Origin: Nanobdellota archaeon
GTDB taxonomy: Archaea; Nanobdellota; Nanobdellia; Woesearchaeales; JAHJEM01
Length of the DNA: 45,680 nt
Assembly: GCA_043805315.1 (NCBI GenBank)
Contig: JAZDID010000120.1
Coordinates: 1-45,680, forward strand
Direction: 5' to 3'
Both the position numbers and the translations under genes were made by a program. Under the pieces are notes generated by a model that was not told the DNA's origin, did no database searches, and worked only from the letters and a program-made list of their open reading frames with translations. Below are positions 11,138 to 40,900 of the stretch, one piece after another (the stretch's first letter is position 1; each line of letters opens with the position of its first letter).

Positions 11138-11157
11138 CTGATAATTGATTTATTCTC

Positions 11158-11709
11158 CTAGACTTCAGCCCTGCAGTCTGGGCAGACCAGAGAGCCTTGC
11201 TTCTCAGAGATCTCTTCAGAAACCTCGCCGCAGATCTCGCAGATGCCCTGGTGCGCGACGCGCTCGTAGACCGGCTTCTTGGTCTCCTCACGCAGCTCGA
11301 TCTTCTCGACGATGATGTCAAAAAGCTGCGGCTCTATCTTCAGGATGTCCTTCAAGGTGATGAAGCCGATGAGCTTCTTGGTGCTGTCAATGACCGGCAG
11401 GTGCCTGATGTCATTGTCCCGCATCATGATCAGCGCGTCATAGATGTCTTTCTCAGGAGAAATGGTGACGAGCTTGGTCGTCATGACCCTGGAAACAGGA
11501 GTTTTTTTCACGTCAAGGTCAGAGATGACTGCTTTCCGCACAATATCCTCCTCTGTCACGATTCCCTTGATCTTGTTCCCTGCGCTGACGAGTATCGAGC
11601 CGATGTTGTGCTTCTCCATCAGCTTGGCGCAATCCCTGACAGAAGTGTCCTCTGTTGCCGTGACCGGCTTGGTCGTCATGCCATCATGGACTGTGAAGCC
11701 TGTCTTCAT
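11158..11709 (-). CDS. CBS-pair domain protein with C-terminal zinc ribbon
   Basis: Two CBS motifs (..NIGSILVSAGNKIKGIVTEEDIV.., ..IRHLPVIDSTKKLIGFITLKDIL..) and a CEICG...CPDC ribbon. The ORF track starts at GTG 11718, which lies inside the SD AGGTGGA, so ATG 11709 is the more likely start. Confidence 0.85.
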   Translation of the reverse strand: MKTGFTVHDGMTTKPVTATEDTSVRDCAKLMEKHNIGSILVSAGNKIKGIVTEEDIVRKAVISDLDVKKTPVSRVMTTKLVTISPEKDIYDALIMMRDNDIRHLPVIDSTKKLIGFITLKDILKIEPQLFDIIVEKIELREETKKPVYERVAHQGICEICGEVSEEISEKQGSLVCPDCRAEV

Positions 11710-11820
11710 GATTTCCACCTAAAACCCATAATTTATGCAGGTAGAGGCTTTTTGGTTTAAATACATTGTGGTGCTAGAAAGAAGTGATGGCAAAAAAAGC
11801 AAGAATTACCTGAGAAAGCA

Positions 11821-11843
11821 ACAAAAAAAGAAAAAGTGAAAAA
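11821..11843 (-). terminator. Oligo-T tracts after the nucleotidyltransferase gene
   Basis: Plus-strand A7, A5 and A5 runs (11823-11829, 11831-11835, 11839-11843) read as T-runs on the minus strand, directly after the TAG stop. Confidence 0.45.
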
Positions 11844-13766: not shown

Positions 13767-13820
13767 GGAATCACCTTTCACATGCATGATTTACAAGGAT
13801 GCTCTTTAGGGGAGAAGGGG

Positions 13821-21099: not shown

Positions 21100-21858
21100 G
21101 TGTGGGGTGGCACTATTCGCTGCGCAAAGCTGAACACGGAAAACACGATTGCCCTATCAGCACTAGTTCTTGCTGCCCTTTCCTTGCTCCTCCTCTCTTC
21201 ATGCACTGCAGCCAGGCAAGGCATGCCTGGTGAAAAGAGCGCAGGATCACCAGCCGCGCTTGCACAACAGGAATACGCACAGGCAGCACAAGAAGAGCAA
21301 CAGCAAGCCGAGAAAGAGCAGGCGATCGTTAAAAAACTCGTCACTCCAGAAGAAGTGGATGCAGCATACGCAAATCTTCCCCAACAATTGAAAGAGGAGA
21401 CGACCAAGGAAAAGCTCGCAGAATCTCTCGCCACAAACAAGCTCATGCTACAGGAGGCTGAGAAAAAATCGCTCACCGCAACCCAACAGGAAGTGGATGC
21501 GTACGTCGACAACCAGAGAAGGATAGCGAGCCTTGATGCGCAGGCATTCACAGCACGGATCGAGAGCCAGGGCTATACTATGGAAGAGTACACGCAGGCA
21601 GTCGAAAACCTTGTCACTGCCTCAAAGCTTCTTGAAAGCGAATTGCGCCTTTCGCAGGTCAATGCGTCTGAACAGGAAATCACCACCTACCTGCAGGACA
21701 ACAGGCAGGAATTCCAGGACTTCTTTGAAGAGAATGATCCTGCGCTTCTGGATGCGCTCAAGACAAGGATAGGCCAGAAGCTCACCAAAGAGAAACAAGA
21801 TGCTTTGGTGAAAGACTATGTAGCATCATTGAAAGAGGACGCGATAGCGCGCGGATAA
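21100..21858 (+). CDS. Lipoprotein with SurA/PrsA N-terminal-like chaperone domain (no PPIase domain seen)
   Basis: Lipobox-like LLLLSSC after a basic N-terminus. Helical repeats of the type VTPEEVDAAY..., TQQEVDAYVDNQ..., SEQEITTYLQDNRQEF are typical of SurA_N/PrsA chaperone modules. The GTG start at 21100 is uncertain. Confidence 0.7.
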   Translation: MWGGTIRCAKLNTENTIALSALVLAALSLLLLSSCTAARQGMPGEKSAGSPAALAQQEYAQAAQEEQQQAEKEQAIVKKLVTPEEVDAAYANLPQQLKEETTKEKLAESLATNKLMLQEAEKKSLTATQQEVDAYVDNQRRIASLDAQAFTARIESQGYTMEEYTQAVENLVTASKLLESELRLSQVNASEQEITTYLQDNRQEFQDFFEENDPALLDALKTRIGQKLTKEKQDALVKDYVASLKEDAIARG

Positions 21859-21953: not shown

Positions 21954-24900
21954 ATGAGGAAAAAGGGCAGCACTATGCGGTTCACCTCACTAGTCCTTGT
22001 TCTTGGTGCGGTCATGCTCACATTCTTGTTCACGCTCAGCACCTCGTCAGGCCAGCTCTCAGTGGACAGCTGCAGCGTGCTCAACGAGTCCGCAATCCTC
22101 ACCGAGGACATCAACGCGACAGGCTCATGCTTCAGCATTATCGGAAATGACATTGAAATTGACTGTCAGCTCCACACCATTCAGGGAGATGGGACTGGAA
22201 TCGGGTTCTCGCTGTATAACAACAGCAATATCTTGATCAGGAATTGCATCGTCGAGAATTTTGAGACCGGGATAGATATCACAGACTCATTTGTTGGTGT
22301 CTACACTATATTGGTCAGACAGAACAGTAAAGGCATCATAACAAGAGGAGACTCTTACCTTGATACAGAAACCAATTCCATCAAAGAGAACGCCCTCGCG
22401 AACCTTGAGAACACCAATGGGAACTTCACCATAGCAGCGTATAACAACTGGTGGGGCACTGCAGACCCTGGTCAGATTGCGCTCACCATAATCGGCAATG
22501 TGAGCTTTGTCCCGTTCTTGGCCCTTGATCCGTATTCAGACGATGATGCAGATACAATCCCTTTGTTTTCAGACAACTGCCCTGCAGTCCCAAATCCTGA
22601 CCAGGGAGATGAAGACGGAGACGGCCTCGGGAATGTTTGCGATAACTGCGCTGACAACTTTAACCCTCTCCAGGGCGATCTGGATATGGATGCGGCCGGA
22701 GACGCCTGTGATCTCGATGACGACGCTGATGGCATCTGTGATTTCGGACTGAGTGTGACGCGGCCTTTGCCTGCCAATCTGGCCCTGAACAGGCCGGTGA
22801 CCGCATCGAACAGCGTCCCTCCGAACGTGCCAGAGTTTGCAGTTGACAGCGATCTGTTGACATTTCTGGCCATGGTCGGAGACCCGCCGCAAGATGTCAC
22901 AGTTGACCTGGAAAGCGCACAGCAAATTGAAAGGGTATCTGTGTTCTTCAATGACTCTGCATCACGCGCATTTGATTACAATATTGAGGTCAGCACAGAT
23001 GGAACAAGTTATGCCATCGCAGCGACTGTCCGCGATAATGATTTCACCGAGAACCACCTCTCCTTCCCTGCTCTCCAAGCCCGCTACGTGCGCCTCAGCC
23101 TCCTGGATTATGACTATGAGAAGGATGATGTGCGCATCAACGAGATCGAGGTGTACGGCTCGACGACATTGTGCACTGGCGGAAGTTCAGGAAGGGACGT
23201 GTGCCCGAGCATTTTTAATCCTGGGCAGGAGGATAGTGATAATGATACAGTGGGAGACGTATGCGATAATTGCCTCCTTACGCCTAATGTTGACCAGACA
23301 GACTCGGATAATGATGGAAAAGGGGATGGGTGTGATGTAAATGTTATGCTCGGGTCGTTCAGCTTCGACCCGCAGAATCCTGGTGAGCTGCCCAACATCA
23401 CCGAAGAGCTCCTCACCGATCAGGAGACCGGCTATTTCATCATCCAATACGCCGCAGGGATGGGGCAGAACATCACTGACGAGATAGCAGGCCGTGGAGG
23501 GCAGGTCAAGGGTTATTTCAACACAAACGGCATGATCGTCCAGGTGGCTGCGAGCCTCGGGGAGCTCCGGTCGTTAGACGCTGTCCGCTATGCTGACATC
23601 TACCAGCCCGTGTTCAAGATCGAGCCTCCGCTCTACGACCTCTACCTACACGGAGGACCCTCCGGGGACATCCTCTCCCTGGACGTGTACGTCTATGGTA
23701 ACAGCCAGGCGGTTATCAACTATGTTCTCTCGCTCGGCGGAACAGCAGTCCATAAGTATCTTGCTACTGATATCCAGTATGACAGGGTCCTCGTGGTGAA
23801 CATTACCGGGACGAAGCTCGCCAACCTCTCCCACCATCCCGACATCGAGTATATTGAGCTTAACTTTATTGACCAGCCTGAGCTGGACGTCGCGACGAAG
23901 ATCACTGATGTGCGGCGGGCATCAAACCAGCCGAATATCCTCGGTCTGACCGGCGCAGGGCAGATTATCGGCCATAGGGACACGGGCGTCGACACAGGCA
24001 ATGCGACCACGCTCATAGCCGACCTTGCAGGCAGAGTACTCAACGATTCAGGCCCGTGGCGTGACACGGACGGCCACGGCACTCACACGCTCGGCATCGC
24101 TATCGGGAACGGCGCCAATTCGGGAGGCCGCATCCGGGGCGTTGCTCCAGGGGCGACGGCCATCCACTCACCCTTCGCAGGTTCACCATTGGAATCGTGG
24201 ACAAACGCCTATAATAGGGGAGCGCGGATACACACGAACAGCTGGGGTAATGGATCGGGCACGACCTATAGTTCGCTCGAGAGCGAAGCCGACACGATAA
24301 CCAACACCAACCAGGATCTTTTACTCGTGAAATCTGCAGGGAACAACGGACCGGGGGCGGGAAGCATCACCTCGCCAACCGCATCGAAGAACCTCATCGC
24401 CGTAGCGAACTCAGAGAATGAACGTCCTGAAAGAACAGCCGCAAACAACGCAGCAGGGGCAGGAGTGGCAGACAATCGTAATCATCTGCGGAGGAGCAGC
24501 AGCGCGGGATTGACTGCTGACAACAGAATAAAACCAGATGTTACTGCACCAGGGACATGGATTTTATCCTTGCAATCGACAGCTCAGGCGAACATTGATC
24601 ATTGTGATGTCGATGGAGATGGTGTTACGGCAGAATCCTTTTATGCGAATCTCAATTATACATTCTGCACAGGCACCAGCATGGCAGCACCCCACGTCGC
24701 AGGCATGGGCGCGCTGATCCGGGAATACCTCATCAGCTTCAAGCACATGGTCAACCCGAGCGGCATGCTGGTCAAGGCCTTCATCATCAACGGCGCCCAA
24801 GACATGCCGGACACGGGAGTGATCGGCGGGGGAGGAGTGAACAGAGGGACAGGTCCCATACCGAACAATGATGAGGGCTGGGGAAGGGTCAATCTGACGC

Positions 24901-27900
24901 ATTCGATCATGCCCTCCGATCTTGTCGGCGCTGTGGATTTCTATGATTCCTTCAATAGGTTCTCGTTCAGTGCCAATGGGGAGAGGAAGAATTTCACGTT
25001 CCGGTTCTCGTCAGAGAGGCCGATCGCCGCGACCCTCGTCTGGTATGACCTTCCTGCCGCTGCAGCGACAGGCGGAGGTGTCGCGCTGATCAATGATCTC
25101 GATATGGAGATGATATCCCCGTCAGGCACCTGGTATAAAGGGGGGAATTTCGCAGGAAATTTTGTCGGAGGAATAACCCAAAGCGGAATCGCGGGAAAGG
25201 ACAGCAGAAACACCGTTGAAAAAATCATCGTCAGGGACGTGGAGGACGGCTTTTACAATTTCTCAATTCGGGCCCATAGCCTGCAGGCAGGCTCAACCCA
25301 GACCTTTGCCCTCGTCGTCTCGCAGCTCTTAGGTCTCGATGCAGCAAACAGGACCAATGTCACCCACTATTTTCCCGTTGGGAACAAAGTCTATGCAGAA
25401 GCGATCGGCTTAAAAAACAATACCCAGATTGAGCTCGTCGTGGTCGCCAACAGGCCGGTGTTCAAGTGGAATTCCACTGTCCAGGTCACGAATGGCGCCA
25501 GCCAGGGAGTCGGCGGATTCAAGTTCATCACCCAAACGCTCGTCCAAACAACAAACAATGGCACGCTTCCAGACCCTACAGAGATCTGGGATACTGCCGG
25601 GAAAGAGAATGAGGTCTGGGCATCCAATGGCATGTTCAACATCTTTGTCAATTACGGTCCCGGCCACCCGATCTATTTCAATAAGAATGTTGACGTGATC
25701 GACTACCACAAGAAGGTCGGTTTCAGGGTCGGCATCGCCAACTCCTCAAACACCCTCGGGGGCAACTTCTCTGACAACTTCACCTATGGCAGTCCGATCT
25801 TCATCAAGGGGGTCGGGTTTGAGCCCGGCAATGTGACGGTGTATGCGGTCAAGGACATCAATGCCTGGGTTGAGGATGCTCCCTTTGCTGATGTGGTGGA
25901 AAAGAAAGAAGGCGTCATCATAGGCAATGACGGCTTCTTCACGGCAAACGTATGGGATGCGCCAGAAAAGACAGAGACAGGAGATTATGATCTTGTCGTA
26001 GACGTTAACAATGACGGAAAATACCAAGCGTCAATTGATGTCATCGACGGAAAGACAATGAAGGGTTTCGTCGTCTCCTGCAAGCCAGGAGAAGTGTGCG
26101 GCGCTGTTGCGGCTGCAGACGCCTCAAGGGATGTCCAGGACGACTTCAACAAAGGAGATCCAGTTTTCGCCATCGGAAATCTTTACATCAGCCCCGGCCT
26201 TCTTTGGGTGCCGCCGGCCATTAATTTCTACAAGGTCTTCTCAAACTCGCCGGTTGAGGACCTTAACGGGGCGCCGCTCGTTGATGTCACTGGCGCGCCG
26301 ACGCCAATTAACGCGCCCAAAGGCCAGTTTATCAATATTAACACGCAGATATGGTCGTCAGCAGACCGTGAGGACGATTATGAGCTCATCCTCGATGTTG
26401 ACAATGACGGCATATTCAACATCTCCACAGATCTCTATGACCCGAACGGATTTGTGGTCACGAGGGAGATAAAGGACCCGCGCATCGCCGTGGACAGCCA
26501 AGGCAGCATCCACGTGGTCGCCTTGGAAAATGAGAAGGTGCCTGGCTACCCGAACCTGAAGAAGACGAACGTCCTCTACGCAAAGGTCCCTGCAGGGAGT
26601 GTCAAGATGGACTTTGAGCACCCTGAGCTGTTCGATTGGAGCGAGAGCCAGGCGGTCGTCTTCAGGACGATCTCTGAGAACTACGGCGGCACGGTGTACT
26701 TCCCTGACATTGCGGTCGACGCGAACGACGAGCCCTACATCATCTACAGCAGGTGGATATCGGAATTCCAGTGGCTCATCATCAGGAAACTGGACAAGAA
26801 TGGCAACAGGGACACGTGCTATGACCGTTCAGACCAGCTCACGCCGCCGGCGCCTGATAAGTCAAACTGCGATGGGAACGGCCTCGACCTATTAATCTAC
26901 CATTGGGACGATTTCGAGGACATCAAGCTCAACTGGCCAACAATAGCAGTAGATAAAACCACGAACCAGCCAGTCATCTCGGCAGAGGTCAGCATGATCT
27001 ATCCAGACGCGTTCTACTACACGCAGATCTACCCGCTCTGCTTCATCGGCTACCAGCCTATCTTCATCGGCCCGCTCATGCAGTTTGGCATCATCCCGTA
27101 TTTCCCGGTCCTCCAGGCAGGAGTCGTCACATTCTATGGAGATTCATTGCAAGTCGCCCGTCGTGTGCCAGGAAGCGCAGGCACCGCGCAGTGGCCGTAT
27201 TCTGTCTCTCAGTTCCCTGACGCAGCGAGGAGGTACGGGGCAGCGGCGACTGAGGTGAATGCCTGCCTTTGGGACGTCGCCACCTCAGGCTATCGGACTG
27301 ACGACAACTGGAAATGGATCACTGTCTCGCAGGTCCCACGGCTCGGCCTGTATTACGACACATCAAAAGTGGACACAGACAAGGACGGCAATATCCATGT
27401 TGTCTTCCGCCAGGGCAGCAACCTCAACTACTCGAAGATTGTCGGCTATGCTCCTGACTTCAACATTAAGATTGATGGCGGCGCTCCTCCCGCGCTGTGG
27501 TTCCCTTGGCTTGATGTCGACCTTGAAGGAAGGGGTCACGTGGCCTGGCAGAGCGGCAGCAAAGTGTATTATACTATTATTGATCCTGCTGGCAGTGCGG
27601 GAACCAAGCAGCTGGTAGCGAACCTGAATTCTCTTGACAGTTTTTCCAGGCCATCGGTGGCTGCTGACGGAGAGGGCGATCCGCACATCTCATGGAAAGA
27701 CAAGGGAAGCGATAGCAAGGACAAGCTCATGTATCGGAAGGGAGAGAATACTGGAGGCTCGGTCTCATTCCTTGACCCTGCCACTATTTTGGTGGATGCA
27801 GGCAATTTCACAGGAGCCTCTGGGCAGATCACGTATCCTGTGCTCGATACGAACAAGCTTGCTCAAGGCAAAGATTGGGAAGACAAAGTCACTGTCGGCT

Positions 27901-30900
27901 GGATCGATATCCAAGATTTGACCTTCTTCAAGGTCAAGCAGACGCTGCCACATGTCACCCTCCTGCTCATCCTCGACGGGATAGACAAGGAGTTCCTTGA
28001 TAACAACCTGCAGAACATGCCCAACCTTGCGCAGCTCATCAACGACAACCCGATACTGGATGCGAGCGTGCTCACGCCATTCCCAGGCACCACGATGTCG
28101 ACCCAGGCAGCCATGTTCACGGGAGTCAAGCCCAAGACCCATCATGTCATCGGGGATAACTTCAAGGCAAGCCAGGCATATTATTTCATGCCTGAATCAG
28201 GCGGCAGTCCCAATGATGCAGATGAGGTGAACAACGTCCTGCAATCCCCTCCCCTTTCAACGGTGTTCGATTCCTTGACCACTGCCAAGAGGAGCAAGGC
28301 AGGCATCCCCGCCATCATCCGGAAGGGCATCCAGGGCAACAGGCCAGACCACAACCCGGCCATCACTATTGATTTCTCCACAGGCACTGTCGATGAGTCA
28401 GACCGTACCCAATATCTCCAGGACCTCAAGAATAATGATGACCAGCCTGGAAATGACGTCGCCGAGCTCGTTGTGGCGTACCTGCTCACACACGACCACG
28501 GGATCAGCGACAATCCCACTGCATCAGGCCTCCACCTTGCAGCGCTCGACCAGAAGATCGGAGACATCATCCAGAAGCTCAAAGACAACAACATCTACAA
28601 TGACACCATCTTCATCATTACCTCAGACCATGGCTTAGTGGATACGATCAAGGATGACAACCACAGCCTTTCATTCTCAGACATCCCTGCATTGGACAAT
28701 CCTCAAGGCATTGCGCTCAATCCGCTGTTCCCGAACGGCAGGGTCGCATATTCTGATGACGGTCTCGATGCTGCAAAAGTGTACTATAACAATTCCGTGG
28801 TGAACATGGACAGCCCGTGGTACCAAGCCATCTCGCGGGTCATTGTCAAGCAAGGAGGAGCCTATTATGACTATAGTTTCAATGGGATGCAAGACGTCCT
28901 CACCCCTGCGACCGACCAATTCCTCGAAGACATGACGTACGGCACGAGCCCGAACATGATACTCATCGCATCGCCGGACTACTACTTCCAGACTCCTCAA
29001 GAAGCCATCTCCGGTGACCAAGAGATCGTGCCTTTCCTCATCACCGGGCCAGGCTTTGGCCTTTTTAGCAGGGGGAACAATAACATCCCAGGACAACTCG
29101 AGGCGGTCGATGTCGCTCCGACACTAGCCTTCTTCACAGGAGGACAAGAGGCAGTTGACCTCATGAGCGGCATTGATGGCGAGAATTTTTATGATCCAGC
29201 ACTCGTCATCCAAGGGGGGTCTCCAGTGGACTTCCATCTGTACGACAGCCTGGGAAGGCACGTCGGGCCCGACGAGTTCGGCAACATCGAGGTGCAGATT
29301 CCGAGCGCAGACTACAGCATAGATCCTGAGACTGGCAAGATCACCATCAGCCTCCTCCAGGCCCCGGACACCTACCTGCTCGATGTCGACAGCTATGGCT
29401 GGGGTAAGTTCGGCCTCTCGGTCAGGAAGAAGACAGGCAATGAGACCTTTGATCTCACTTTCCCGCGCACATCCATCTCGCCAAATTCTTTTGCAAACCT
29501 TGACCTCTCTACCATGGAGTTCCGACTGGACTTTGAGGGTGACGGGACATTTGAACGCATGATAGACCCTCCGGAATCCATCATCATTGTTCAGGATGAG
29601 CAGAACAACAGGGCAACGGCACGCATCCTCACGCTCGCTGCACGAGAGCCTGCGAGCATGGACTTGAGCAGGGCAACCGGCGTCATATTCGATGTGAAGA
29701 ACAAGCAGGGAATCACTGACGGGCAGATCGATGTGCAGCGGTTTTCTGACCAAAGTCTCACCCAAACAGGGTTCTACACCTTCGGAAATTATGTGGTGGT
29801 CAACATCAGCGACAACGTGCTCACGAATGCGAAGTTCACCAAGCTCACGATCATCTATCCAGAGTACCTGCTCTTTCAGAACAACCTCTCTGAGAAATCA
29901 CTTGCGGTCTATGACAAGCAGACCGGACAAAGATTCCTGTCAAGCGTCGATGGGGAAAAGAACAGAGTGACTGTCTTGATCAACAGTTCAGGAGAATACT
30001 TGCTGGCGAGCACAGACCTCATTCCGATGATGGATGATATCACCGTCACTCCGCAGGCGACTAACATCATCAATGCCCCGGTGCAGGTCTCTGTGAAGAT
30101 CAGCGATGACAGCCTGATCACTGGGGCTAACGTGACCCTGGGGAACAGGACAGAGCCTTTAGTGTTCAATAGCGGGTCAGGACGGTATGAGGCAGTCATC
30201 ACCGGGCCAGACATCTCAGCGACCTATCCTGTCTTCATCACAGCCCAGGACGACACCGAGAACATCGTGATGCGGCAGGCAGAGTTCAAGCTTGATCTCG
30301 ATGCCCCAGTCATCAGGATCCTCTCACCCCGGAACATTTCTTACACGACAAACAGGATCATGTTATCGTTCTTCACTGATGAAGTCGCTGACCTCTCACT
30401 TTCGATTGATGGATCTCCTTCAACACCGCTTAACAGCACCGCATCATTCAAGATCAATACGCTCCAGCTCACGCTTCCTGGAGGCAACCACTCCCTGACC
30501 ATTAACGCATCAGACGTGTTTGCCAACAATGGCATAAAAACAGTCTCGTTCGAAGTGGAGAAGGAGAATGTCCTGCTCTCTGACCTGGAAGTGCCGATGT
30601 TCGAGAAGCCTGGCATCCCAGTCCCGATACAGGCTGTCGCGGCGAATACCATGATGGATCCGGAACAGAATGTGCTGGCCCAGCTCTTGCTCAATGGCAA
30701 TGTGAGCCAGCAGACAGCGCTCAACATCTCGGGAGAATCGAGTGTGAATGTCTCGTTCCTCATCACGCCGCCTGAAGGGAGGTACACGCTCACGCTCAAA
30801 CTGCTCCCATTGCCAGAAGAGCGGGTGATTTTGGATAATGAGCTCTCGCAAGAGATCCTTATCACGAGCAAGATCCCGGTCCTAATCATCGCTGATGACC

Positions 30901-32732
30901 CTGCAGCGAACCAGTCAGTCTACCAGAATGCCATCAGCCAGGCAGGTGGCCTGGGATACGACTATTTGAGATATGACGTGAGCCAGAAAGGCCCTCCCAG
31001 TTTCCCTCTGCTCGACGGATTCCCTCTTGTACTCTGGCTCACCGGAGGGTCGCAGACCTTGACCCCGCTCGAGATCAACAGCCTGAAGTCCTACCTCGAC
31101 ACGCGAGGCAACCTGCTCATCTTCAGCAATGACATGGCTGCAGAGCTCGCGGATACAGACTTCTACAAGAATTACCTTGCCGCAGAGTTCAGGAGGCGTG
31201 CCAGTTCCACCACTATTGAAGGCGCGTTCAGGGATGCCATCGGTGCAGGCATGCTGTTCAGCATATTCGAACCAGGAGACGAGATCAAGCCGAGGATTGG
31301 TGCAACTGAATCATTCCGGTATTCTGGAGGAGAATCTGCTGCGATTAAGTATGACAGCGGTGTGTTCAAGACCGTCTATTTCACATTCGGCCTGGAGGAT
31401 GTGAATGACACAGAATCCCGGCAAATGATTATGGATAGGACGCTTGGCTATTTCAACATCGACATCCAACCACCAGGCATCACGAACATCGAGCCAGGGC
31501 TGAATGCGACATTCCCCATCAACACCAGCACCATCACGCTCTCGCTGCAGACGAATGAGTTCGCAGAGTGCAGGTACTCAGACACGATAACGCTCTTCGG
31601 CAGCATGTCCTTATTCGCGAGCACGAACAGCACCCAACACTCGACTCAGCTCAATAATCTTGCGAACGGGAACAATTACCTGTTCTTCATCAACTGCCGC
31701 GATGTCTTCAGCAATGAGAACAAGCAGCACACAGCGGGGTTCTTTATCTACAACAGGACATTCTTCCCGCCAGTTTTGCAGGACGTAGCCAGCCAGAGCG
31801 CTGATGAGAACACGCTTGTCCAGATCCCGCTCATTGTCTCTGACCCTGAGAACGATCCTCTCTCTCTGACCCTCTCAGACGTCGAGATCGTCGGCGTGGT
31901 TCCCATCGCCAGCAGATTTACCCTGCAGAACTCGACCTTCAGGTTCCAGTCGAACTTCAACGACGCAGGGATCTACAAGCTCCGCGTCACTGCCTCTGAC
32001 GGCTTTGAGAGCGTCTCGCGGGATTTCTTCCTCACAATCAACAACGTCAACCGCGCACCAGTGCTGGCATCCATCGGGAATAGGCAGGTCTTCGAGGACA
32101 GCCTCTTCACCCTTGATGCTGATGCAAGCGACCCTGACAATGACAACCTCATATTCACCGATGACAGCGGATTATTCGCGATCAACCCTGCGACTGGACT
32201 CGTCACATTCACGCCGAAGAACGAGCAGGTCGGCAGCCACCTGATCACTCTCACGGTGTCTGACTCCAACCTCTCTGACTCTGAAGTGTTCACCTTGACA
32301 GTCGTCAACACCAACGATCCTCCGATTGCCGCGTTCATACCGCCTCAGGCTGTGCAGGAAGGCAATCCGTTTGTCTTGCAAGTGAATGCATCTGACCCTG
32401 ACAACAACACCCTCACCTACAGCGATGACACCGACCTGTTCAACATCTCCCAGACCGGCCTGGTCAGCTTCACCCCAACGAACGCAGATGTCGGGACGCA
32501 TATCATCAACATCACGGTCTCAGACAGCATCGCCGCAGTGTCACGCCTGCTGAACCTCATCGTGACAGAGACCAATGCCGCGCCGATCATCACCAGCATG
32601 CCATACATCATCACCGTCAATCCAGGAGGTATCCTCGAGATCAATGTGACTGCGTGCGATCCTGACGTGAATCCAGCCTGTACACTAAAACAGCAGAAAG
32701 AACCGCCAATAGAGTCTATCAACATTCCCTAA
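21954..32732 (+). CDS. Giant (3592 aa) secreted multidomain protein: beta-helix, TSP3 repeats, discoidin, subtilisin S8 protease, propeller-like repeats, NPP/alkaline-phosphatase-type phosphodiesterase, Ig-like/CARDB modules, cadherin-like repeats
   Basis: Uninterrupted ORF with GAGG 10 nt upstream of the ATG and a signal-like N-terminus [17 protein letters not shown].
- Beta-helix-like repeats: ~22060-22500.
- TSP3 Ca-binding repeats: [26 protein letters not shown] (22527-22745) and a second set at 23195-23335.
- F5/8-type-C-like domain ending INEIEVYG: 22780-23160.
- S8 and NPP domains: listed as separate features.
- Repeated D-x-x-G-x-x-H-[VI] blades: 26470-27900.
- CARDB-like module: ~30590-30860.
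- Four cadherin-like ~95-aa repeats ([10 protein letters not shown].., [10 protein letters not shown]..): 31750-32640. Confidence 0.95.
   Translation: [3592 protein letters not shown]
23950..24900 (+). other. Subtilisin-family (S8) protease domain with an intact catalytic triad, inside the 3592-aa protein
   Basis: Asp in [10 protein letters not shown] (codon at 23979), His in DGHGTHTLG (24075), Asn in SAGNNGPG, Ser in [11 protein letters not shown] (24678). Propeptide-like region upstream and a P-domain-like LINDLDMEM segment downstream. Confidence 0.88.
27945..28650 (+). other. Nucleotide pyrophosphatase/phosphodiesterase (alkaline-phosphatase superfamily) domain, inside the 3592-aa protein
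   Basis: Motifs [11 protein letters not shown] (metal Asp), [29 protein letters not shown] (Thr nucleophile context; compare the NPP pattern P-T-x-T-x-P-N-H-x-x-x-x-T-G-x-x-P-x-x-H-G-I) and FIITSDHGL (D-H metal ligands). Confidence 0.75.
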
Positions 32733-32778
32733 ATCACCCATCCTGCTCACATCAAAATCAATATTGGAGGCAACCAAC

Positions 32779-35700
32779 ATGAAACGGGAAGGAAAAAAAG
32801 GAGAGAAAATGGATACGGCACAACAGCAGAGCCGCCTCTGGCGGCACAAGAGTCTTACGGCGAAAAAGCCGGGCTTCATGCAGGCTCAGGCGCTCCAGCC
32901 AGGCAGGAGACTCCTTCCCGCTGCCGGCCAGGGCACTCGACCTAGCGACAGCTCTCGCCTCCGAACAAAACAGCGCTCAACTACCTGCTGTTCAACTAAA
33001 CAGCGCTCAACATATGCCTTCCTCATGGGTGCGCTCCTCTTCGTGTTCGCCTTCTCAATGGTGCACGGCGCATTTGCAGCGCAGCTTCCCCTGCCGATCG
33101 ACGCGGCAACAAAGGCAGGCTTGCCCTCGTTTGTGCTCAACTCCTCAGACCTCATCGGAGACAGGGGAGAATATGCAAACCCCTCTGTTGCTGACCTGGA
33201 TGCTGACGGCGATTATGACATCGTGCTCGGCCTGAACAATGGCCTGCTCGAGTGGTGGAGAAATGACGGAAGCAATACCGCGCCGCTCTGGGTCTTGGCC
33301 AACGGCAGCATGATAGGAGATTACGCTGACCAATCCTCTCCGACCCTGACAGACTTTGACAACGATGGAGACTTTGACCTTTTCGTGGGCTACGGCAACA
33401 GCTACCTCTATTATTTCCAAAACACAGGCACTCCCCAGGCTCCCAGCTTCACCTATGTCAGGCGCATGCTGAGCGTAGGAAGCAATGCCATGCCTGAGGC
33501 GATAGATTACAACAAGGACGGGAATGTGGACATGTACTACGGCCGAGAAAACCCCAACATATACAAGCTCAAGAATGACGTCGGAGAGAGCGGCTTTGAC
33601 TTCAACCACTTCTACTTCCCCGACGTGGGCTCTTACTCGTCAGTATTCCTCGCTGATGTAGACGCTGACGGAGATTTTGATGCCTTCATCGGCGGGAATG
33701 ACGGCAATGTCTGGCTGTTCAAGAATCTTGGAGGATCATCGCCAAATGTTTTCGGCACAGCGAACAAGGATTACTTTGACTCGGGAACCGTGTTGTTTGA
33801 TGTTGGCAGCAGGGCAGACCCTACATTAGCAGACCTTGATGCTGACGGAGACCTTGACCTGCTCATCGGCAAGAGCGACGGCACGTTCACCTACTACAGG
33901 AATGACGGCACAGCGCGCAACGCATTCTGGACCCTCGTGCCCAATTACCTGACCGCAGATGCAGGAGACAATGCAGCGGCGACGCTCGCGGACCTGGACA
34001 ATGACGCAGACCTTGACCTGGTCATCGGGAACAATGCAGGATTCATATCCTATTATGTCAATGAGGGAACTCCTCAGGACGCAAACTTTGTCCTTTCTGG
34101 AAGCAGCCTTGTCGGAGACGTGGGCACTGACGCGAATCCAGAGCTGCGAGACCTTGATAATGACGGGAAATATGACCTTGCAGTCGGCAGGAGCGATGGG
34201 ATCATCCTCTTCTACAGAAACACCGGCACGCCAATCTCCGCCACCTTCACTGCTGCAGGAAATGTGCTTGACGACTACATCGACTATACAACGCCGAGCT
34301 TCGCAGACCTTGACGGGGACGGCGACCTTGACCTCGCAACCGGGGCAGGAGACATCGGCGGATGGGTCTCCCTGATAGAGAACACCGGAAGCCTGACCAA
34401 TTTCAGCTTCTCCAACAAGAACACCTTCTGGTTCGACAATACCGGGAGGGGAAGGACTCCTGACTTCGCAGACTTTGACAAGGACGGAGACCAGGACATG
34501 GTCATCGGACAGGAAGATGGCTATGTTTATTATTTCCGGAATGACGGGACTGCCCAAAAGCCATCCTGGGCAAGCGCGCGTGACTGGATAGGCGACTGGG
34601 GCAGTTGGACATCCCCTTCCTTCGGAGACCTGAACAATGACGGCGAGATTGACTTCATCTTGGGCGGGAGCGATTTCAATGTCTTCTACTACTTCAAGAA
34701 TGACGTCTTGGAAAGCGGGTTCAACTTTGTACAGAACACCTCAGACCTCATCGGCGACATCGGCAGCTATGCAGACCCCAAGTTCGCAGACATGGACGCT
34801 GACGGCGATTTCGACCTCTTCATTGGCACGGTAGATGGCAGGGTACGCTACTACAAAAATATCGGCAGCGCGCAAGTGCCTATTTTTGTCTCTCAAGCAG
34901 ATCCCATACCAGACCAGGGAGACTGGACTTCAATCACAACAGGAGACCTTGACGCAGATGAGGATTTAGACCTCCTCCTTGGAACATACAATGACCAGTA
35001 TGTGCGCTATTACAGAAATACTGGCAACGCAACCAACTTCAACTTTGTCCAGGCATCGACCAACCTGCTGAACAGCTACTGCAGGCCAGGAGACGGCAAC
35101 TCCAGGTGCACCCCAGAGCTTGTTGATCTTGACAATGACGGAGATCTCGATTTGCTCGTTTCGCTCTGGAATGGCTATACAAGATATTGGCGAAATGACG
35201 GCACTCCTACAATTGCTGTCTGGTCTGACCAGGGAGATATCATTGGAAACATTGGCACCGGTGGCAAACCAACTGTTGCTGACCTTGATTATGATGGAGA
35301 CAAAGATGTCCTGCTCGGCAGGTCTGACGGCATGACATTCTATTATAAGAACACAGGCAGCGCGACAAGCCCGAGCTTCACCTCTATTTATGCAGGTCCA
35401 GGAGGCTCCCAGTATTTACCTAATCAGGGAAACTACGCAAAGCCAGCATTCGCAGACCTCAACAATGACGGCAACATTGACGTGGCAGTCGGATTGGAGT
35501 CCGGCCTGACAGCATTATACTTCAACCAGGGCCATTGGCAGACCAGCCAGCAGAAAGGAGATAACCCCACCTGGATATACCAGGACAGCAACCTCTTCGA
35601 CGCTATTTGCGAGCCGAACCAGGGCACAGGCTACTGCAACGGGGAGCTTGTGGACATTGACAATGATGGAGACCTCGATGTGGTCGGCGGTAATTACTAT

Positions 35701-37350
35701 TACGGCCCGAGGTTCTGGGAGAATGTCGGCAATAGCCAGGTCTACTCATTCCTTGTCCGGCAGACCCTCGTGAGTGATTATGGCGACTCCCATGATACGA
35801 CCATGGGCGACTTTGACAATGATGGAGACCTGGACATGATGATAGGTTATAGTGATGGCAGGGTCATGTATTTCAAGAACGTGGGGACAGCCCAGACTCC
35901 CTCATTCACCACAGTCTATAGAGGAGATGACGGCTCGTATTATCTCACTGACCTCGGTGATTACGCGCGTGTCGGAGCTGTTGACATCAACAATGACGGG
36001 CTTATGGACCTCTCGTTCACAGAGACGAACGGGCCAAACGAGCAGTACTTCCTGAGAAACAAGGGCGTGCTTGCAGATCCAGTGCAGAAAGCAAGAGACA
36101 CCACATGGGTGAGCGATGGCATTGTGCTCACAAATCCTGCAAACTACAACAACAACAAGCCCAGCGCAGCAGATGTTGACGGTGACGGCGACATTGACCT
36201 TGTTGTGGGAGACGAATATGAGCGCCTCTTATACTATCGTAATGAAGGCACGCACAATGCACCAAATTACGTGCTTGACTCTGTGCTCTTTGACTTCAAC
36301 ACTTACTATGCACGGCCAGCACTCCTGGATTATGACGGAGATGGCGACTTTGACCTGCTCTCAGGAAGATATTACGGCCTTTTGCAGTATATCACCAACA
36401 GGGGAAGCTATGCAACAGCCACAACCCTCACCTTGAAAGACCAGCAGAGCCAGGCCATCGTCGCTGCGAGCGTCGTGTTCAGCGACGACTCAGGCATCGT
36501 GTGCAGCAACCAGACCGATGCCAAGGGACAGGTGCGCTGCCCGATCACGTTCGTGGGCAGCAAAGGAAGGATAAGCGTCACTGGAGGAGCTCCGGGGACA
36601 GCAACGCTCGGTGTGTTCTCGCCGAACTCGCGGGGAAACACCTATATGACGCTCCAGAACCCAGCGTCGACATTCAGCGTCGACCTCGCGAGGTTCCTGT
36701 TCCAGACCTATGGCCTGAACAACGTAGCCAAGCCGATGCACATCACTGTCCAAGATGGCGGGACGACACTCTTCTCAGAGCTCACCCAGGACAATGGATT
36801 CATTGACGGGTTCTTCCCGCAGAAATACCTGGAGAACAGGCAGGAGCCCTTCACCCAGAACAGGATCCAGTACGATGTCACGCTGGAGCGGAATAACGAT
36901 TACGCCTCTGACCTCGACTTGGATGGCGTGTTCGTGCCGAACGAGATCAACTTCAACGGCGATGCAGAGAGCACGAAGCTGTACAAGTTCATCAGCGCGC
37001 ACCAGATGTCGACAGACGCAGAGTACAAGGGATTCATCATCTACCCTGCACTGACTGCGCAGCGCGCCTACCACTTGGCAGACAGCGTGCCTACCGACTT
37101 TACCTACGCGCACCAGCTCACCGCGAGCTACCTAGGCCAGTCCTGCGCAAAGAACGCGAGCAGCACGAGTATTCTGGTGAACTCGACTGACACTGGCTGC
37201 AGTTTCCTGGCGAACCCGGTACAGACTGCAGGAGATTGGGTGAAATACGAGTTCACGGTCAGGACACCCTCACTCGACCTGTTCATCATGCAGGGGCTGA
37301 CCAACCAAAGCTACAGCTTCCCGGCAGCGCAGCTGAGCCTGATATCATAA
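32779..37350 (+). CDS. FG-GAP/VCBS-repeat (integrin-alpha-like propeller) surface protein, about 1520 aa
   Basis: About 20 repeats carrying D-x-D-x-DGD-x-D Ca-binding loops (ADLDADGDYDIVLG ... LDYDGDGDFDLLSG). C-terminal ~330 aa include a carboxypeptidase-regulatory-like Ig segment. The start is ambiguous. ATG 32779 has GGAGG 8 nt upstream but gives an ~80-aa basic extension. ATG 33025 begins directly at the hydrophobic signal MGALLFVFAFSMVHGAFA. Confidence 0.88.
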   Translation: MKREGKKGEKMDTAQQQSRLWRHKSLTAKKPGFMQAQALQPGRRLLPAAGQGTRPSDSSRLRTKQRSTTCCSTKQRSTYAFLMGALLFVFAFSMVHGAFAAQLPLPIDAATKAGLPSFVLNSSDLIGDRGEYANPSVADLDADGDYDIVLGLNNGLLEWWRNDGSNTAPLWVLANGSMIGDYADQSSPTLTDFDNDGDFDLFVGYGNSYLYYFQNTGTPQAPSFTYVRRMLSVGSNAMPEAIDYNKDGNVDMYYGRENPNIYKLKNDVGESGFDFNHFYFPDVGSYSSVFLADVDADGDFDAFIGGNDGNVWLFKNLGGSSPNVFGTANKDYFDSGTVLFDVGSRADPTLADLDADGDLDLLIGKSDGTFTYYRNDGTARNAFWTLVPNYLTADAGDNAAATLADLDNDADLDLVIGNNAGFISYYVNEGTPQDANFVLSGSSLVGDVGTDANPELRDLDNDGKYDLAVGRSDGIILFYRNTGTPISATFTAAGNVLDDYIDYTTPSFADLDGDGDLDLATGAGDIGGWVSLIENTGSLTNFSFSNKNTFWFDNTGRGRTPDFADFDKDGDQDMVIGQEDGYVYYFRNDGTAQKPSWASARDWIGDWGSWTSPSFGDLNNDGEIDFILGGSDFNVFYYFKNDVLESGFNFVQNTSDLIGDIGSYADPKFADMDADGDFDLFIGTVDGRVRYYKNIGSAQVPIFVSQADPIPDQGDWTSITTGDLDADEDLDLLLGTYNDQYVRYYRNTGNATNFNFVQASTNLLNSYCRPGDGNSRCTPELVDLDNDGDLDLLVSLWNGYTRYWRNDGTPTIAVWSDQGDIIGNIGTGGKPTVADLDYDGDKDVLLGRSDGMTFYYKNTGSATSPSFTSIYAGPGGSQYLPNQGNYAKPAFADLNNDGNIDVAVGLESGLTALYFNQGHWQTSQQKGDNPTWIYQDSNLFDAICEPNQGTGYCNGELVDIDNDGDLDVVGGNYYYGPRFWENVGNSQVYSFLVRQTLVSDYGDSHDTTMGDFDNDGDLDMMIGYSDGRVMYFKNVGTAQTPSFTTVYRGDDGSYYLTDLGDYARVGAVDINNDGLMDLSFTETNGPNEQYFLRNKGVLADPVQKARDTTWVSDGIVLTNPANYNNNKPSAADVDGDGDIDLVVGDEYERLLYYRNEGTHNAPNYVLDSVLFDFNTYYARPALLDYDGDGDFDLLSGRYYGLLQYITNRGSYATATTLTLKDQQSQAIVAASVVFSDDSGIVCSNQTDAKGQVRCPITFVGSKGRISVTGGAPGTATLGVFSPNSRGNTYMTLQNPASTFSVDLARFLFQTYGLNNVAKPMHITVQDGGTTLFSELTQDNGFIDGFFPQKYLENRQEPFTQNRIQYDVTLERNNDYASDLDLDGVFVPNEINFNGDAESTKLYKFISAHQMSTDAEYKGFIIYPALTAQRAYHLADSVPTDFTYAHQLTASYLGQSCAKNASSTSILVNSTDTGCSFLANPVQTAGDWVKYEFTVRTPSLDLFIMQGLTNQSYSFPAAQLSLIS
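32969..33011 (+). promoter_or_regulatory. Two exact copies of the 13-mer AACAGCGCTCAAC, 30 nt apart, at the 5' end of the FG-GAP gene
   Basis: Copies at 32969-32981 and 32999-33011, identical to the boxes at 6570-6582 and 6620-6632. They lie 14-56 nt upstream of ATG 33025. Confidence 0.5.
33190..36352 (+). repeat. Array of about 20 FG-GAP coding repeats
   Basis: Recurrent GA(Y)(Y)T(N)GA(Y)..GACGG(N)GA(Y) codon blocks encode DLDADGD-type loops every ~50-60 aa. Confidence 0.85.
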
Positions 37351-37372: not shown

Positions 37373-37972
37373 GTGCAACGCAGACAAACACAGGAAAAGG
37401 GCATGCTCGACATGAGCATGTTCTCGACGAGGAAGCATTCCTGGATAGCGGCAGCTCTGCCGACCCTGCTCATGCTGGCTGCTATACTAATCGTAGGAGC
37501 GGCGCTGTCCGGATGCATCGAATACAACGGAGCGACAGTTCGAGTGACAGAAGTGGAAAAGGAACGGACGCACGAGTTCAGGATGGTGAGCGACGGCCAG
37601 CGCACCCTGCTTGAAGGGGCATTCAGCATCGACGGCAAATCCTATCCCGGCGAGATCTACTACGACGGGAAGAACAGCTACATCCTGCGCAAGAATCCAA
37701 ACCAGTGCATCAGCTATGACATCCCTGACAAGCTGCTGTTCGGCTTCAGGCCAATACCAGCACCTGCCGAAGAGGCCGCGTCTGGAGTCACTGTCCTCGA
37801 GAAAGACAGCAAAGACAGACCTATCATGTACAAACTTGTGGATCAGGGCATGACCTCCATCGTGGAGATCAATGGCATTGACCAGGCAACAGACGCGGGA
37901 AAAGGGTTCGACTTCAAGACGATTGATACGGGTACATGCATCAATGAAGGAGAGGTATATACTATTGGATAG
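37373..37972 (+). CDS. Small lipoprotein-like secreted protein (199 aa)
   Basis: GTG 37373 has GAGG 6 nt upstream (alternative ATG at 37403). Signal plus lipobox-like IVGAALSGC. No family recognised. Confidence 0.68.
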   Translation: MQRRQTQEKGMLDMSMFSTRKHSWIAAALPTLLMLAAILIVGAALSGCIEYNGATVRVTEVEKERTHEFRMVSDGQRTLLEGAFSIDGKSYPGEIYYDGKNSYILRKNPNQCISYDIPDKLLFGFRPIPAPAEEAASGVTVLEKDSKDRPIMYKLVDQGMTSIVEINGIDQATDAGKGFDFKTIDTGTCINEGEVYTIG

Positions 37973-40900
37973 GCAAACTCTAGAGGGGAAACGGGGAAGG
38001 GGGAAACAAGGGAAGAGCCTGTTCTCTGCCGGAGCATTGCTCCTGCTCTTGCTCCTGCTCTCTCTTCTCATGGCAGGCCTTGCCCTCGCAGCAACCCGCA
38101 AGCCGATTGTCCATCCGATCACCCTGCCGCCCCAGGTCCAGGTCCTGTTCCCGAACAATGGGGAGAACATCACCACACGCACCCTCAATGTCAGCTGGAA
38201 CGCCTTTGACCCGGACGGAGACGTGGTCACGCTCAACATCTTCGTGGACAGGAATAGTGACCCTGCAGACGGCTCCATCCAGGTCGCGTCGAGCGAGCCG
38301 AACGACGGCTGGTACATCCTCGACCTCCTCCCTCTTGCGCTTCCAGAGGACTATTACTACATCCGCGTGGACGCTGTCGCAGACATTGAACGGGTGACTG
38401 ATTATGCTGACCTGCCGTTCTACAAAGGAGGATTTGCTGTCAACTACAGCTCTGGACAGTACCAGGCGAGTGTCCTGCTTGTCCAGCAGCCAGAGATCAC
38501 TGTCTCGCCAGACCTCGCACCGCTCGGGAGAGGCATCTACCCGATCAGGTTCACTGTCCGCGACCCCAACCATGAGTCCCTGTTCGGCACATTCTATTAC
38601 TCGAGCTCGCCTGGCCAGCGCCAGAACCTCATCAGCCAGAACATTCCCCTTTCGAACATCTGCACTGATCCTGACGGCGATACTGCCACTGCCAACAACT
38701 GCACGCTGTACTGGAACACAACGCTCAACGCGAACGTGTCTATCGACATCGTGGCTACCAACACCCACCTTGAGGGGAATGCGAGCACACCACTCGTGCA
38801 GTTCGACAACAACCCTGAGGTCCAGGTCCTGTTCCCGAACGGCGGAGAGGAGCTCACGGACCGGTATGTGACCGCATCCTGGACAGCGGGAGACGTGGCT
38901 AACTTCAGCGTCCTCATCGACCTGTACTATGACGATGATGCAACAGCGTTCAACGGCAGGACCCTCATCGCGAGCGCAGAGCCCAATGACGGCTTCTATG
39001 TCTGGGACCTGCACACCGTGCAGGCAGGCGATTATTACCTGAGCATTGACGCGCGCTCCTCAGGCGTGGACAGCTCTGGCAACCCCATCACCGTGTCAAG
39101 CACTGACTACAGCAATGCCCTGTTCAGGAAGCGGGGCTTCAACGAGTCCTTCACAAGCGTCTTCGTGAGCAACAACTACACGGTCACGGTGAACGAGGCG
39201 CCTGCAGTGGAAGTCACTTCTCCGAACGGCGGAGAAACGATCAACGGGACCCAATCAGTGCAGTTCAATGTCTCAGACCTCCAGGGAGATTTCCTTGCCG
39301 CGAGCATCTACTATTCCACAGTACCCGGAGCAAAGGAGAATCTGATTGGGGCGAACATCTCGCTCAACAGCACCTACTGCGCAGACCCTGACGGGACGAC
39401 ATCCACAGAGAACAGCTGCGCCTATTCTTGGGACACTCTCGGACTGAATGGGAATTATTACCTCGACATCCTGGTGAGCGACTCCATCCTTACGGGATTC
39501 GACAGCTCTGACGCGAGCTTCACCGTGAACAACTATCCGCGAATTATGAACCTAACGGTGAGCAATGTTACGGACCAGAGCAGCCTCATATCCTGGCAGA
39601 CGCCTGACGAGGACACGAACGCCACTGTGCGCTACGGCCTTGACCAAAACCTGACACAGCAGACCTCAACGCTGAGCGTTGGCAGGATACAGGTGATCCT
39701 TCTGCAGAATCTCGTGGGAAACAAGGTCTATTATTTCAGCGCATTAAGCTGTGACGCGACAGGCTTGTGCACGAGCTCGAGCATCAGGAACTTCACGACT
39801 CTCGACAACAGGCCAGCCCTTGCGGTGCTCTCTCCGAATGGAGGAGAGGTCTTCACGACATCACAAGTGAACATCACTTGGAATGCAACAGACCCTGACC
39901 AGGACCCGATCACTCTCGACGTGTACTATGACACCGACAATCTCAGCGTGAACGGCAGGAACCTGATCTCGTCAGGTGAGGTGAATGACGGCTGGCTTGT
40001 CTGGAACATCCAGAACCTGAACAACGGGAATTACTTTGTCAGCATCGATGCAAACACCACAAGCCTGACAGAAGGCCCTGTCATTGTGCAGGACTACTCT
40101 GACAATTCATTCGAGAAGTCAGACATCTCTCTTGTCTACACCAGCAACGCCTACCAGGCTGATGTCTTGAAGAATGCGCCTGTCTCTATTGTTATCGGGG
40201 TGAATGACACAGAGCCGCTCGAAGACAATGTGACCATCAGCTTCAACCTCACAGACCTTGAGGACCAGTTCCTAACTGTATCACTCTTCTATTCTTCAGC
40301 TCCAGGATTGAAAGAGTATGCACTCTTCACTGATCTCATCATCAATGCATCCTTCTGCGCAGTGGTGCAGCAGCACAGCCAAGGAGGCGCCAGCTATGGA
40401 TGCGAGGTTGTCATAGACTCTGACAGCATCAACGGAGACTTCTACCTCGACCTTGAGGCAGACGACAGCATCCACACCAGCCTGAACAGCTCAAGCCTGC
40501 TCGCTTTCAACAACCCGCCGCACTTCATGAACATCCAGGTGCTTGACATCGACACCCACACGGTGCAGGTCAGCTGGCAGACCGCAGAGCTGACGAATGC
40601 GAGCATCAGCTATGGCCTGTCGCAGAATTACACCGACCGTGCTGCGGATAGCAATCCCCTCCTGAACCAATCCCTTGTCCTTGCGAACCTGACCGGCAAT
40701 AGGCGCTACCACTTCATGATCACGAGCTGCGACACCTCAGGAAAGTGCACGAGCACGCAGGACATGAACTTCACAACGCTCAACAACCTGCCCATTGTCC
40801 AGGTCATCTATCCGAACGGCGGCGAGCAGATCGACCAGCAGGTTCTGAACATCCAGTGGTCAGCGGTTGATGAAGACCTCGACCCGGCAACTCTTGATAT

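Follow-up and report, generated by a model that had tools for sequence, protein, structure and literature searches.

What would an archaeal cell do with a single polypeptide that carries both a subtilisin-type protease domain (S8) and an NPP-type phosphodiesterase domain, set among calcium-binding and adhesion modules? The question is raised by a giant protein of 3,592 amino acids (aa) encoded in a contig stretch of 45,680 nucleotides (nt), hereafter the window. Its open reading frame (ORF) occupies 21954..32732 on the + strand, with an ATG at 21954, a stop at 32732 and no interruption; residue numbers below refer to this protein. On the sequence evidence we consider it fairly probable that the giant is one component of a conserved surface apparatus of DPANN (Woesearchaeota-type) archaea that serves adhesion and envelope degradation. 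Its likely job would be to attach to another cell's envelope, or to particulate material, and to degrade it locally.

One reading frame joins enzyme-like and adhesion modules

A preliminary description of this DNA had proposed the fusion from sequence motifs. All of the motifs that it quoted were found in the giant protein, and the catalytic codons were checked directly in the DNA. In a Pfam scan of the giant, the matches to Peptidase_S8, Phosphodiest, discoidin, Big_9, He_PIG and Cadherin_4 all exceeded the curated cut-offs. From the N- to the C-terminus the modules are a beta-helix, TSP3 repeats, a variably present discoidin domain, a second set of TSP3 repeats, a propeptide-like region, the S8 domain, a post-S8 domain, a middle region, a propeller-like region, the NPP-like domain, three regions without a family match and cadherin-like repeats. 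The ORF, the Pfam matches and residue alignments together bear out a single polypeptide that joins a complete S8 domain, an NPP-type domain and calcium-binding and adhesion modules.

A fusion of this size might be an artefact of a mis-assembled contig or of read-through of separate genes. The idea arises because the window derives from an uncultured organism and the exact protein is absent from the gene catalogue searched, but no evidence for it was found. We regard this as exceedingly improbable. The same N- to C-terminal order is encoded in at least ten independent assemblies from different samples, and one relative, the metagenome contig L002, matches over 3,576 aa (aa 1-3576 of the giant) in a single tblastn high-scoring segment pair at 45.6% identity. 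An assembly chimera was therefore rejected.

The giant family was recovered by an exhaustive HMMER search and comprises at least 13 clusters of giant proteins of 2,400-4,035 aa, collinear from N- to C-terminus with the window protein. Its named members are proteins from metagenome-assembled genomes (MAGs), three of Ca. Woesearchaeota and one of Ca. Aenigmarchaeota, annotated as "S8 family serine peptidase", a public label that conceals the second enzyme-like domain. In one variant (P0233/P0124; P0233 is encoded at 3713-13393 of locus L053) an N-terminal Amidase_3 domain replaces the beta-helix/TSP3/S8 block and the downstream chassis is the same. Another member, P0127, has a different N-terminal stretch of 1,045 aa without a family match. 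An exact look-up in a gene catalogue returned no entry for the window giant protein or for the window UppS, so that the contig itself is missing from that catalogue, and a single-sequence search of genome contigs with the giant gave an irrelevant Pirellulales hit as its sole match.

The named homologues come from DPANN MAGs, and the window encodes a tyrosine recombinase (4704-5516, - strand) that matches the archaeal XerA equivalog at 267 bits against a cut-off of 220. We therefore assign the organism to the DPANN-type archaea; a bacterial origin was rejected on these grounds. The recombinase is a chromosome-resolution gene and not evidence of a mobile element. A scan of the window detected no tRNA and no Rfam match.

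The S8 domain carries a complete catalytic set

The Peptidase S8 catalytic domain (aa 668-977; 23955..24884, + strand) was delimited by Pfam and by alignment with the subtilases SubHal and KP-43. PF00082 matched it over the full model (positions 2-288 of 288) with an E-value of 7e-32 and 111.3 bits against a cut-off of 21.8. The S8 motifs are DTG (D676, codon 23979-23981), HGTH (H708, 24075-24077), AGNNGPG (N797, 24342-24344) and GTSMAAPH (S909, 24678-24680), all on the + strand. SubHal (5fax) and KP-43 (1wmd) are the closest solved structures, both at E ~1e-39, and the catalytic domain aligns with them over ~330 residues with Asp, His, Asn and Ser in register. When the window protein was aligned with 10 orthologues and five standalone homologues, D676, H708 and S909 were invariant across all 11 family members and the 5 standalone proteins, and the oxyanion-hole residue N797 was kept in 10 of the 11 family members, one orthologue being different. 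The complete S8 catalytic set of the preliminary description is thus confirmed: the triad and the oxyanion Asn align with the catalytic positions of solved subtilases. By these criteria the domain is a competent subtilase and an ordinary S8 member, with predicted proteolytic activity. Despite the invariant triad, the S8 domain overall is among the least conserved parts of the giant per residue. It differs from KP-43 and SubHal in being internal to a 3,592-aa chain, after 640 aa of adhesion modules, and in having an extra DxDxDG-containing insert ahead of the Ser.

The internal position of the protease also fits a different view of the giant, as a polyprotein in which S8 cuts the chain in the way that subtilases remove their propeptides, freeing an N-terminal adhesin and separate enzyme pieces. 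At the usual propeptide position the S8 domain is preceded by a conserved region of 170 aa (aa 470-640; 23361..23873, + strand) that has no family match and may be propeptide-like. Standalone S8 relatives of 600-870 aa (~35% identity, flanking regions included) span the same block of pro-region, S8 and C-terminal domain, covering also the conserved domain after S8 (aa 1000-1140; 24951..25373, + strand); PF01663 was absent from all of the top 120 S8 relatives. However, a segment-wise Pfam scan of the region before S8 gave no I9 propeptide match and at most a CspB_prodomain hint at an E-value of 0.06, and the cleavage site is conjecture. All modules are, moreover, strictly collinear in one ORF across the family, which suggests that they act while linked. 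On balance, release of the modules as separate pieces seems quite unlikely.

An NPP fold with a remodelled metal site

The second enzyme-like domain (aa 1993-2430; 27930..29243, + strand) was defined by Pfam, hhalign and AlphaFold/Foldseek. PF01663 matched aa 2002-2244 at E 1.3e-19, covering model positions 1-235 of 342, and passed the family threshold with 71.5 bits against 23. The region is highly divergent. A PDB sequence search reached E ~1e-5 at best, to Xac NPP; a word-indexed search of 5.8 billion proteins with the region alone gave no match, and the same index searched with the family alignment gave one unrelated match. When the family profile was compared with canonical PF01663-like proteins, the whole domain was aligned (hhalign probability 100%, E 7e-46). 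An AlphaFold model built from a 73-sequence alignment had a pLDDT of 89.5 and a pTM of 0.91; a 12-sequence alignment gave a pLDDT of 49 and was not used for the fold search. In a Foldseek search of the PDB with the former, the top 34 matches were all NPPs (probability 1.0, E ~1e-14, TM 0.55-0.68), with Xac NPP, ENPP6, ENPP3, ENPP5, ENPP4, autotaxin and ENPP1 among them. Structure prediction of the region thus yielded an NPP fold.

The motifs LILDGID (D2008, codon 27975-27977), PGTTMSTQAAMFTG (T2047, 28092-28094), HHVIGDNF (N2069) and TSDHG (D2225-H2226, 28626-28631) are all present, on the + strand, and their key residues align with catalytic positions. T2047 is aligned to the Thr that serves as nucleophile in Xac NPP and ENPP4, in a column occupied by Thr in 54 and by Ser in 3 of 57 canonical relatives. 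The metal site 1 ligands, D2008 of the DG motif and D2225 and H2226 of the SDHG motif, are in place, and N2069 matches the Xac NPP Asn that follows the nucleophile helix. Fold, nucleophile, site 1 and this Asn are therefore shared with the NPPs compared (Xac NPP 2gsn/7mw8, ENPP3-6 and autotaxin), to which the window domain is 13-17% identical.

Metal site 2 is different. The DxxxH motif of NPPs has collapsed to H2180-D2181-H2182 (28491-28499, + strand), its +4 His falling within a five-residue deletion common to the whole family, and the GxHG His is replaced. Across 14 family members the column of Q2349 (codon 28998-29000, + strand) holds His in nine, Gln in two, Lys in two and Arg in one. D2181 is found in all 14 members and H2182 in 13, which suggests a rebuilt metal site and not decay; the conserved H2180 and H2182 could stand in as site-2 ligands. 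An intact NPP domain is thus partly supported. Its fold, its Thr nucleophile and, in the metal-ligand alignment, its site-1 ligands uphold that view, whereas two of the three site-2 ligands fail to align and several orthologues are catalytically degenerate. The domain is best named NPP-like, not NPP: it has the NPP fold and half of the active site.

For our reading of the giant, phosphoryl transfer would be the weakest link. The NPP-fold domain probably still hydrolyses some phosphodiester or phosphomonoester, with the odds of activity in the window protein itself about even. Several points weigh against the reading here. By alignment, metal site 2 retains one of three canonical ligands (D2181, the Asp of D-x-x-x-H). 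Depending on the alignment, the GxHG His falls opposite Q2349 or S2353, neither of which is His; in the closest relatives position 2349 is still occupied by His, where the window protein has Gln. Four of the 14 family members (P0125, P0130, P0131 and P0132) have lost at least two catalytic residues, so catalysis is not uniformly under selection and the domain may be structural. Canonical NPP-like sequences were part of the AlphaFold alignment and bias the model toward the NPP fold.

In this protein the domain could be a pseudoenzyme that serves as a spacer in the structure or binds phosphate or another ligand, with S8 as the sole catalytic activity. Such a role would suit the family-wide deletion of the canonical DxxxH His, the replacement of the third site-2 His by Gln (or Ser) in the window protein, and the four degenerate members, in which the nucleophile and/or site-1 ligands are gone although the domain and the remainder of the protein are preserved; the domain also tolerates an insertion of 200-260 aa in P0127 and P0128. 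However, the Thr (or Ser) nucleophile is retained in 13 of 14 family members, and the Asp and His of TSDHG are both retained in nine, with Glu-His in one further member. Taken with the conservation of D2181 and H2182, the alignment of N2069 with the Xac NPP Asn and the His at 2349 in the closest relatives, this pattern of retention exceeds what fold maintenance alone usually demands. We see the pseudoenzyme explanation as possible, and lean against it.

Substrate preference is a separate matter. The residue after the nucleophile is Met, where the Xac NPP sequence has Phe (as do 19 of 57 canonical relatives), and there is thus no sign of a nucleotide pocket. The nucleotide phosphodiesterase specificity that had been proposed was not borne out, and nothing favours a nucleotide substrate in particular.

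The family adds a feature of its own to the domain, the motif DLKNNDDQPGND (aa 2157-2168, window 28422-28457; pattern DLKNNDxxxxND), which NPPs do not share. Within it D2162, N2167 and D2168, together with Y2154 just before it, are invariant in 12 aligned family members, and the motif was not seen in the intermediate PF01663-like relatives aligned. It may add metal or substrate ligands. The insert of P0127 (aa 1413-1596) and P0128 (aa 2165-2415) is Cys-rich and beta-helix-like and splits the NPP-like domain just before a YF..PH motif; it resembles the N-terminal module of the same proteins and has acidic or Thr/Ser-rich low-complexity linkers alongside. P0138, a relative of 2,016 aa, reuses the NPP-like domain and the beta-sandwich region that follows it in a different architecture, in the order membrane segments, thioredoxin, IPT/TIG, many TSP3 repeats and an NPP domain in which DxxxH and GxHG are both canonical. 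The NPP module was probably an active enzyme ancestrally.

Binding modules and the conserved C-terminus

The features in this section all lie on the + strand. The N-terminus has a basic region and a hydrophobic segment (aa 10-28; 21954..22055), recognized in a Kyte-Doolittle scan, that would act as a Sec signal peptide or signal anchor. It is followed by a right-handed beta-helix-like module (aa ~35-190; 22056..22523) that matched PF13229 at E 9e-4, below the cut-off, and is conserved in 10 orthologues. TSP3-like calcium-binding repeats form two sets, the first at aa 190-270 (22521..22763; NF047638 MtsC-type match at aa 196-263, DxDxDGxxD at 242 and 255) and the second at aa 405-470 (23166..23363; DxDxDGxxD at 450). 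The two sets of the preliminary description find support in these motifs and in the NCBIfam MtsC-type matches, whose TSP3 region reached E 1e-24 but scored far below the whole-protein cut-off; Pfam TSP_3, at 13.1 bits, stayed below its 25-bit cut-off. PF02412 is on record for orthologues of the giant protein. Between the two sets lies a discoidin / F5_F8 type C domain (aa 282-390; 22797..23123), which had been predicted correctly: PF00754 scored 43.9 bits against 28.2 and PF22633 48.3 bits against 27.8. It occurs in just 3 of 9 full-length orthologues compared.

Beyond the protease block, a conserved middle region (aa 1140-1500; 25371..26453) has no family match. The putative beta-propeller after it (aa 1500-1980; 26451..27893) has six D-x-x-G-x-x-H(V/I) repeats at aa 1514-1912. 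The repeat region is present as described; family support for a propeller was limited to weak BNR_4 and SBBP hints in a segment Pfam scan, and a PDB sequence search of the region returned nothing useful. Three further conserved regions without a family match follow the NPP-like domain (aa 2480-3290; 29391..31823). The last of them, aa 3050-3290, is strongly conserved, and a PDB sequence search with it likewise returned nothing useful; segment-wise Pfam scans of the regions without a family gave sub-threshold hints only.

The protein closes with cadherin-like / Big_9 / He_PIG repeats (aa 3272-3576; 31767..32681) that end in ACDPDxxPxC. Over aa ~3280-3573 the profiles were above cut-off, with Big_9 at 44.6 bits (3 stretches), He_PIG at 41.5 and Cadherin_4 at 27.6. 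Four repeats had been claimed; three are full and the fourth is truncated. The orthologues end at the conserved ACDPDxDPxC motif, and the window protein runs 16 residues further. Per residue, the TSP3 repeats and these C-terminal repeats are the best conserved parts of the giant, and the cadherin-like C-terminus is 43-57% identical in every orthologue. CARDB modules had also been assigned to the giant and were not confirmed there: no match was found at E <= 0.1 with the whole protein or at E <= 1 with segments, and CARDB is found in the neighbouring giant instead.

The giant gene belongs to a conserved five-gene cluster

The giant gene is flanked by genes that recur beside it in relatives. A gene for a SurA_N-like, secreted or lipoprotein-like protein (21100..21858, + strand) lies 95 nt upstream. 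Its product has a signal or lipobox-like N-terminus (…LLLSSC) and a SurA_N-type domain match at or just above the cut-off; the scan of the window copy revealed no PPIase domain. In 7 of 7 relatives with context, the Amidase_3 variant included, the giant is immediately preceded by a SurA_N-like gene. Downstream of the giant is a gene for an FG-GAP/VCBS repeat protein of 1,528 aa (32764..37350, + strand; first in-frame ATG at 32779). It has 14 FG-GAP_3 stretches, and its ~80-aa basic, cytoplasmic N-terminal tail followed by a single transmembrane (TM) segment (aa 82-100) corresponds to a type-II anchor layout. FG-GAP-bearing proteins are encoded downstream of the giant in 5 of 6 relatives with data. 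The full-length orthologues in L050 and L052 (56-62% identity) are better conserved than the S8/NPP giant in those genomes.

The next gene (37373..37972, + strand) encodes a small single-TM protein of 199 aa without a Pfam match and overlaps the start of the following gene by 29 nt; it is 40-43% identical to its counterparts in L050 and L052, which likewise lie between the genes for the FG-GAP protein and the second giant. The fifth gene (37944..45680, + strand) runs off the window and encodes a second giant surface protein of at least 2,579 aa with matches to CARDB, Kre9/KNH-like Ig, Pur_ac_phosph_N/fn3 and discoidin. Its orthologues at the same cluster position have 4,845 aa (L052) and 7,879 aa (L050) and are 52-55% identical.

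The full five-gene order was reproduced in L050 (GCA_016185705.1) and L052 (Logan run SRR22387764). Identities to the window, in gene order, were 23%, 33%, 56%, 40% and 52% in L050 and 29%, 53%, 62%, 43% and 55% in L052. Where fully assembled in relatives, the cluster measures ~30-40 kb.

Other observations concern the surroundings of the cluster. In locus L054 the neighbouring giant (1-9204, at least 3,359 aa) carries NosD/beta-helix, NLPC_P60, CARDB and PKD domains. The G+C content is 0.42-0.50 in window positions 1-21000 and 0.52-0.57 across the giant-gene cluster, and the AT skew is positive throughout the cluster. On the - strand upstream of the cluster, two large proteins of 1,105 aa (17103-20420) and 747 aa (14813-17056) have one N-terminal hydrophobic segment each; they gave no Pfam or NCBIfam match and have no homologue beside the cluster in related loci. 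A protein of 647 aa (11844-13787, - strand) has an NTP_transf_2 / Pol-beta-like nucleotidyltransferase domain at aa ~205-255 and otherwise gave no match.

A probable surface apparatus for contact and envelope degradation

Read as parts of one apparatus, these elements suggest the following course. The giant would leave the cell by way of its N-terminal signal or anchor, and the SurA_N-like protein encoded directly upstream would probably assist its folding outside the cell. The beta-helix, the calcium-binding TSP3 repeats and the discoidin lectin would, to judge from their domain families, contact the target surface. The subtilisin-type domain, whose catalytic residues are conserved, would then cut protein, joined by the NPP-like domain in so far as it is active. 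The conserved cadherin-like C-terminus would probably retain the giant on the cell, most plausibly via the membrane-anchored FG-GAP protein. Hints of envelope attack come from two bacterial cell-wall hydrolase domains, the peptidoglycan amidase Amidase_3 that takes the place of the S8 block in P0233/P0124 and the NLPC_P60 domain of the neighbouring giant in L054. Because of this variant, this neighbour and the published murein-lytic giants, envelope attack fits better than bulk scavenging.

To the points raised by the NPP-like domain, others must be added on the same side. The Amidase_3 and NLPC_P60 hints belong to relatives, not to the window. Docking of the giant onto the FG-GAP protein is conjecture, and in L051 the gene that follows the giant codes for a LamG / DUF2341 / beta-helix protein, not FG-GAP. 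The Kyte-Doolittle scan detected no hydrophobic segment in the giant other than aa 10-28 and no C-terminal anchor; a C-terminal membrane or sortase-type anchor was therefore rejected, and the surface tether that the preliminary description gave the protein was not recovered.

That description had joined the tether to a nutritional role, in which a surface-bound dual enzyme would use S8 to scavenge peptides, and NPP to scavenge nucleotides, from a host or its surroundings. The S8 domain is indeed complete, NPPs are the nearest structural matches of the second domain, DPANN are widely inferred to rely on scavenged nucleotides (PMC8204110), and RNA-scavenging metabolism has been mentioned (PMC9723730). 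However, metal site 2 is remodelled and 4 of 14 orthologues are degenerate, the Met after the nucleophile gives no indication of a nucleotide pocket, and no tether was detected in the giant itself. Linkage to adhesin-like giants and a foldase-like gene in a conserved cluster, together with the Amidase_3 variant, favours cell contact. Scavenging therefore fits less well than contact and envelope attack, and we judge it unlikely.

A more specific form of the contact reading can be proposed tentatively, and we consider it less likely than not. The giant would be a subunit of a dedicated five-gene surface machine that holds the archaeon on a host cell and opens the host envelope. The machine would consist of a foldase; a giant with swappable lytic heads (S8 or Amidase_3) on a constant propeller/NPP-like/cadherin-like chassis; an FG-GAP base, integrin-like and anchored in the membrane; a small membrane protein; and a CARDB/FG-GAP fibre of 5,000-8,000 aa. 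The NPP-like domain would in that case cleave an envelope polymer with phosphodiester linkages, or the head group of a lipid, not nucleotides.

Comparison with known giant surface proteins

DPANN archaea account for a large part of the diversity of archaea, and most of them are thought to live attached to other cells. For Woesearchaeota we know of neither hosts nor attachment machinery. The cluster, with its protease-bearing giant, its membrane-anchored integrin-like protein and its foldase-like gene, offers a concrete and testable candidate for such machinery. If active, the NPP-like domain would also interest enzymologists as an unusual variant of the alkaline-phosphatase-superfamily active site. 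We found no description of the S8 plus PF01663 architecture, the swappable head or the five-gene cluster in the literature, where coverage of subscription journals was incomplete.

Extracytoplasmic foldases of the PrsA/SurA/PpiD type pair with secreted proteases, as Bacillus PrsA does in subtilisin secretion. The arrangement here is similar in that the giant gene is always adjoined by one for a SurA_N-like protein whose N-terminus resembles a signal or lipobox, and different in that the window copy shows a SurA_N-type domain alone. Its product may be a dedicated extracytoplasmic foldase.

Giant enzyme-bearing surface proteins of DPANN archaea are already known. Large extracellular murein-lytic proteins of Woesearchaeota and Pacearchaeota have been interpreted as host-contact enzymes (PMC8204110, PMC9723730); neither report, as far as accessible, mentions the five-gene cluster. 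Compared by description only, these murein-lytic-transglycosylase giants (fam00969, PMC8204110; PMC9723730) share with the present family the organisms, an extracellular location, a length of up to ~3,000 aa and the combination of binding modules with a lytic domain. They differ in the enzymes, which here are S8 and an NPP-like domain, with Amidase_3 in one variant.

The SPEARE giants of Nanohaloarchaeota have been put forward as host-interaction proteins that unite protease, adhesion and nucleic-acid-directed modules (Hamm et al. 2019, PMC6642349), and their protease and nuclease domains have been disputed by re-analysis (PMC10266531). The likeness, again by description, is that of a giant DPANN surface protein with enzyme and adhesion modules. 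SPEARE proteins, however, are 6,000-9,400 aa long with a terminal VirB4/TraG-like ATPase, whereas the enzyme domains of the window giant pass curated thresholds. The S8 and NPP fusion itself is moderately surprising, and it is the conserved cluster and the atypical active site that deserve most attention.

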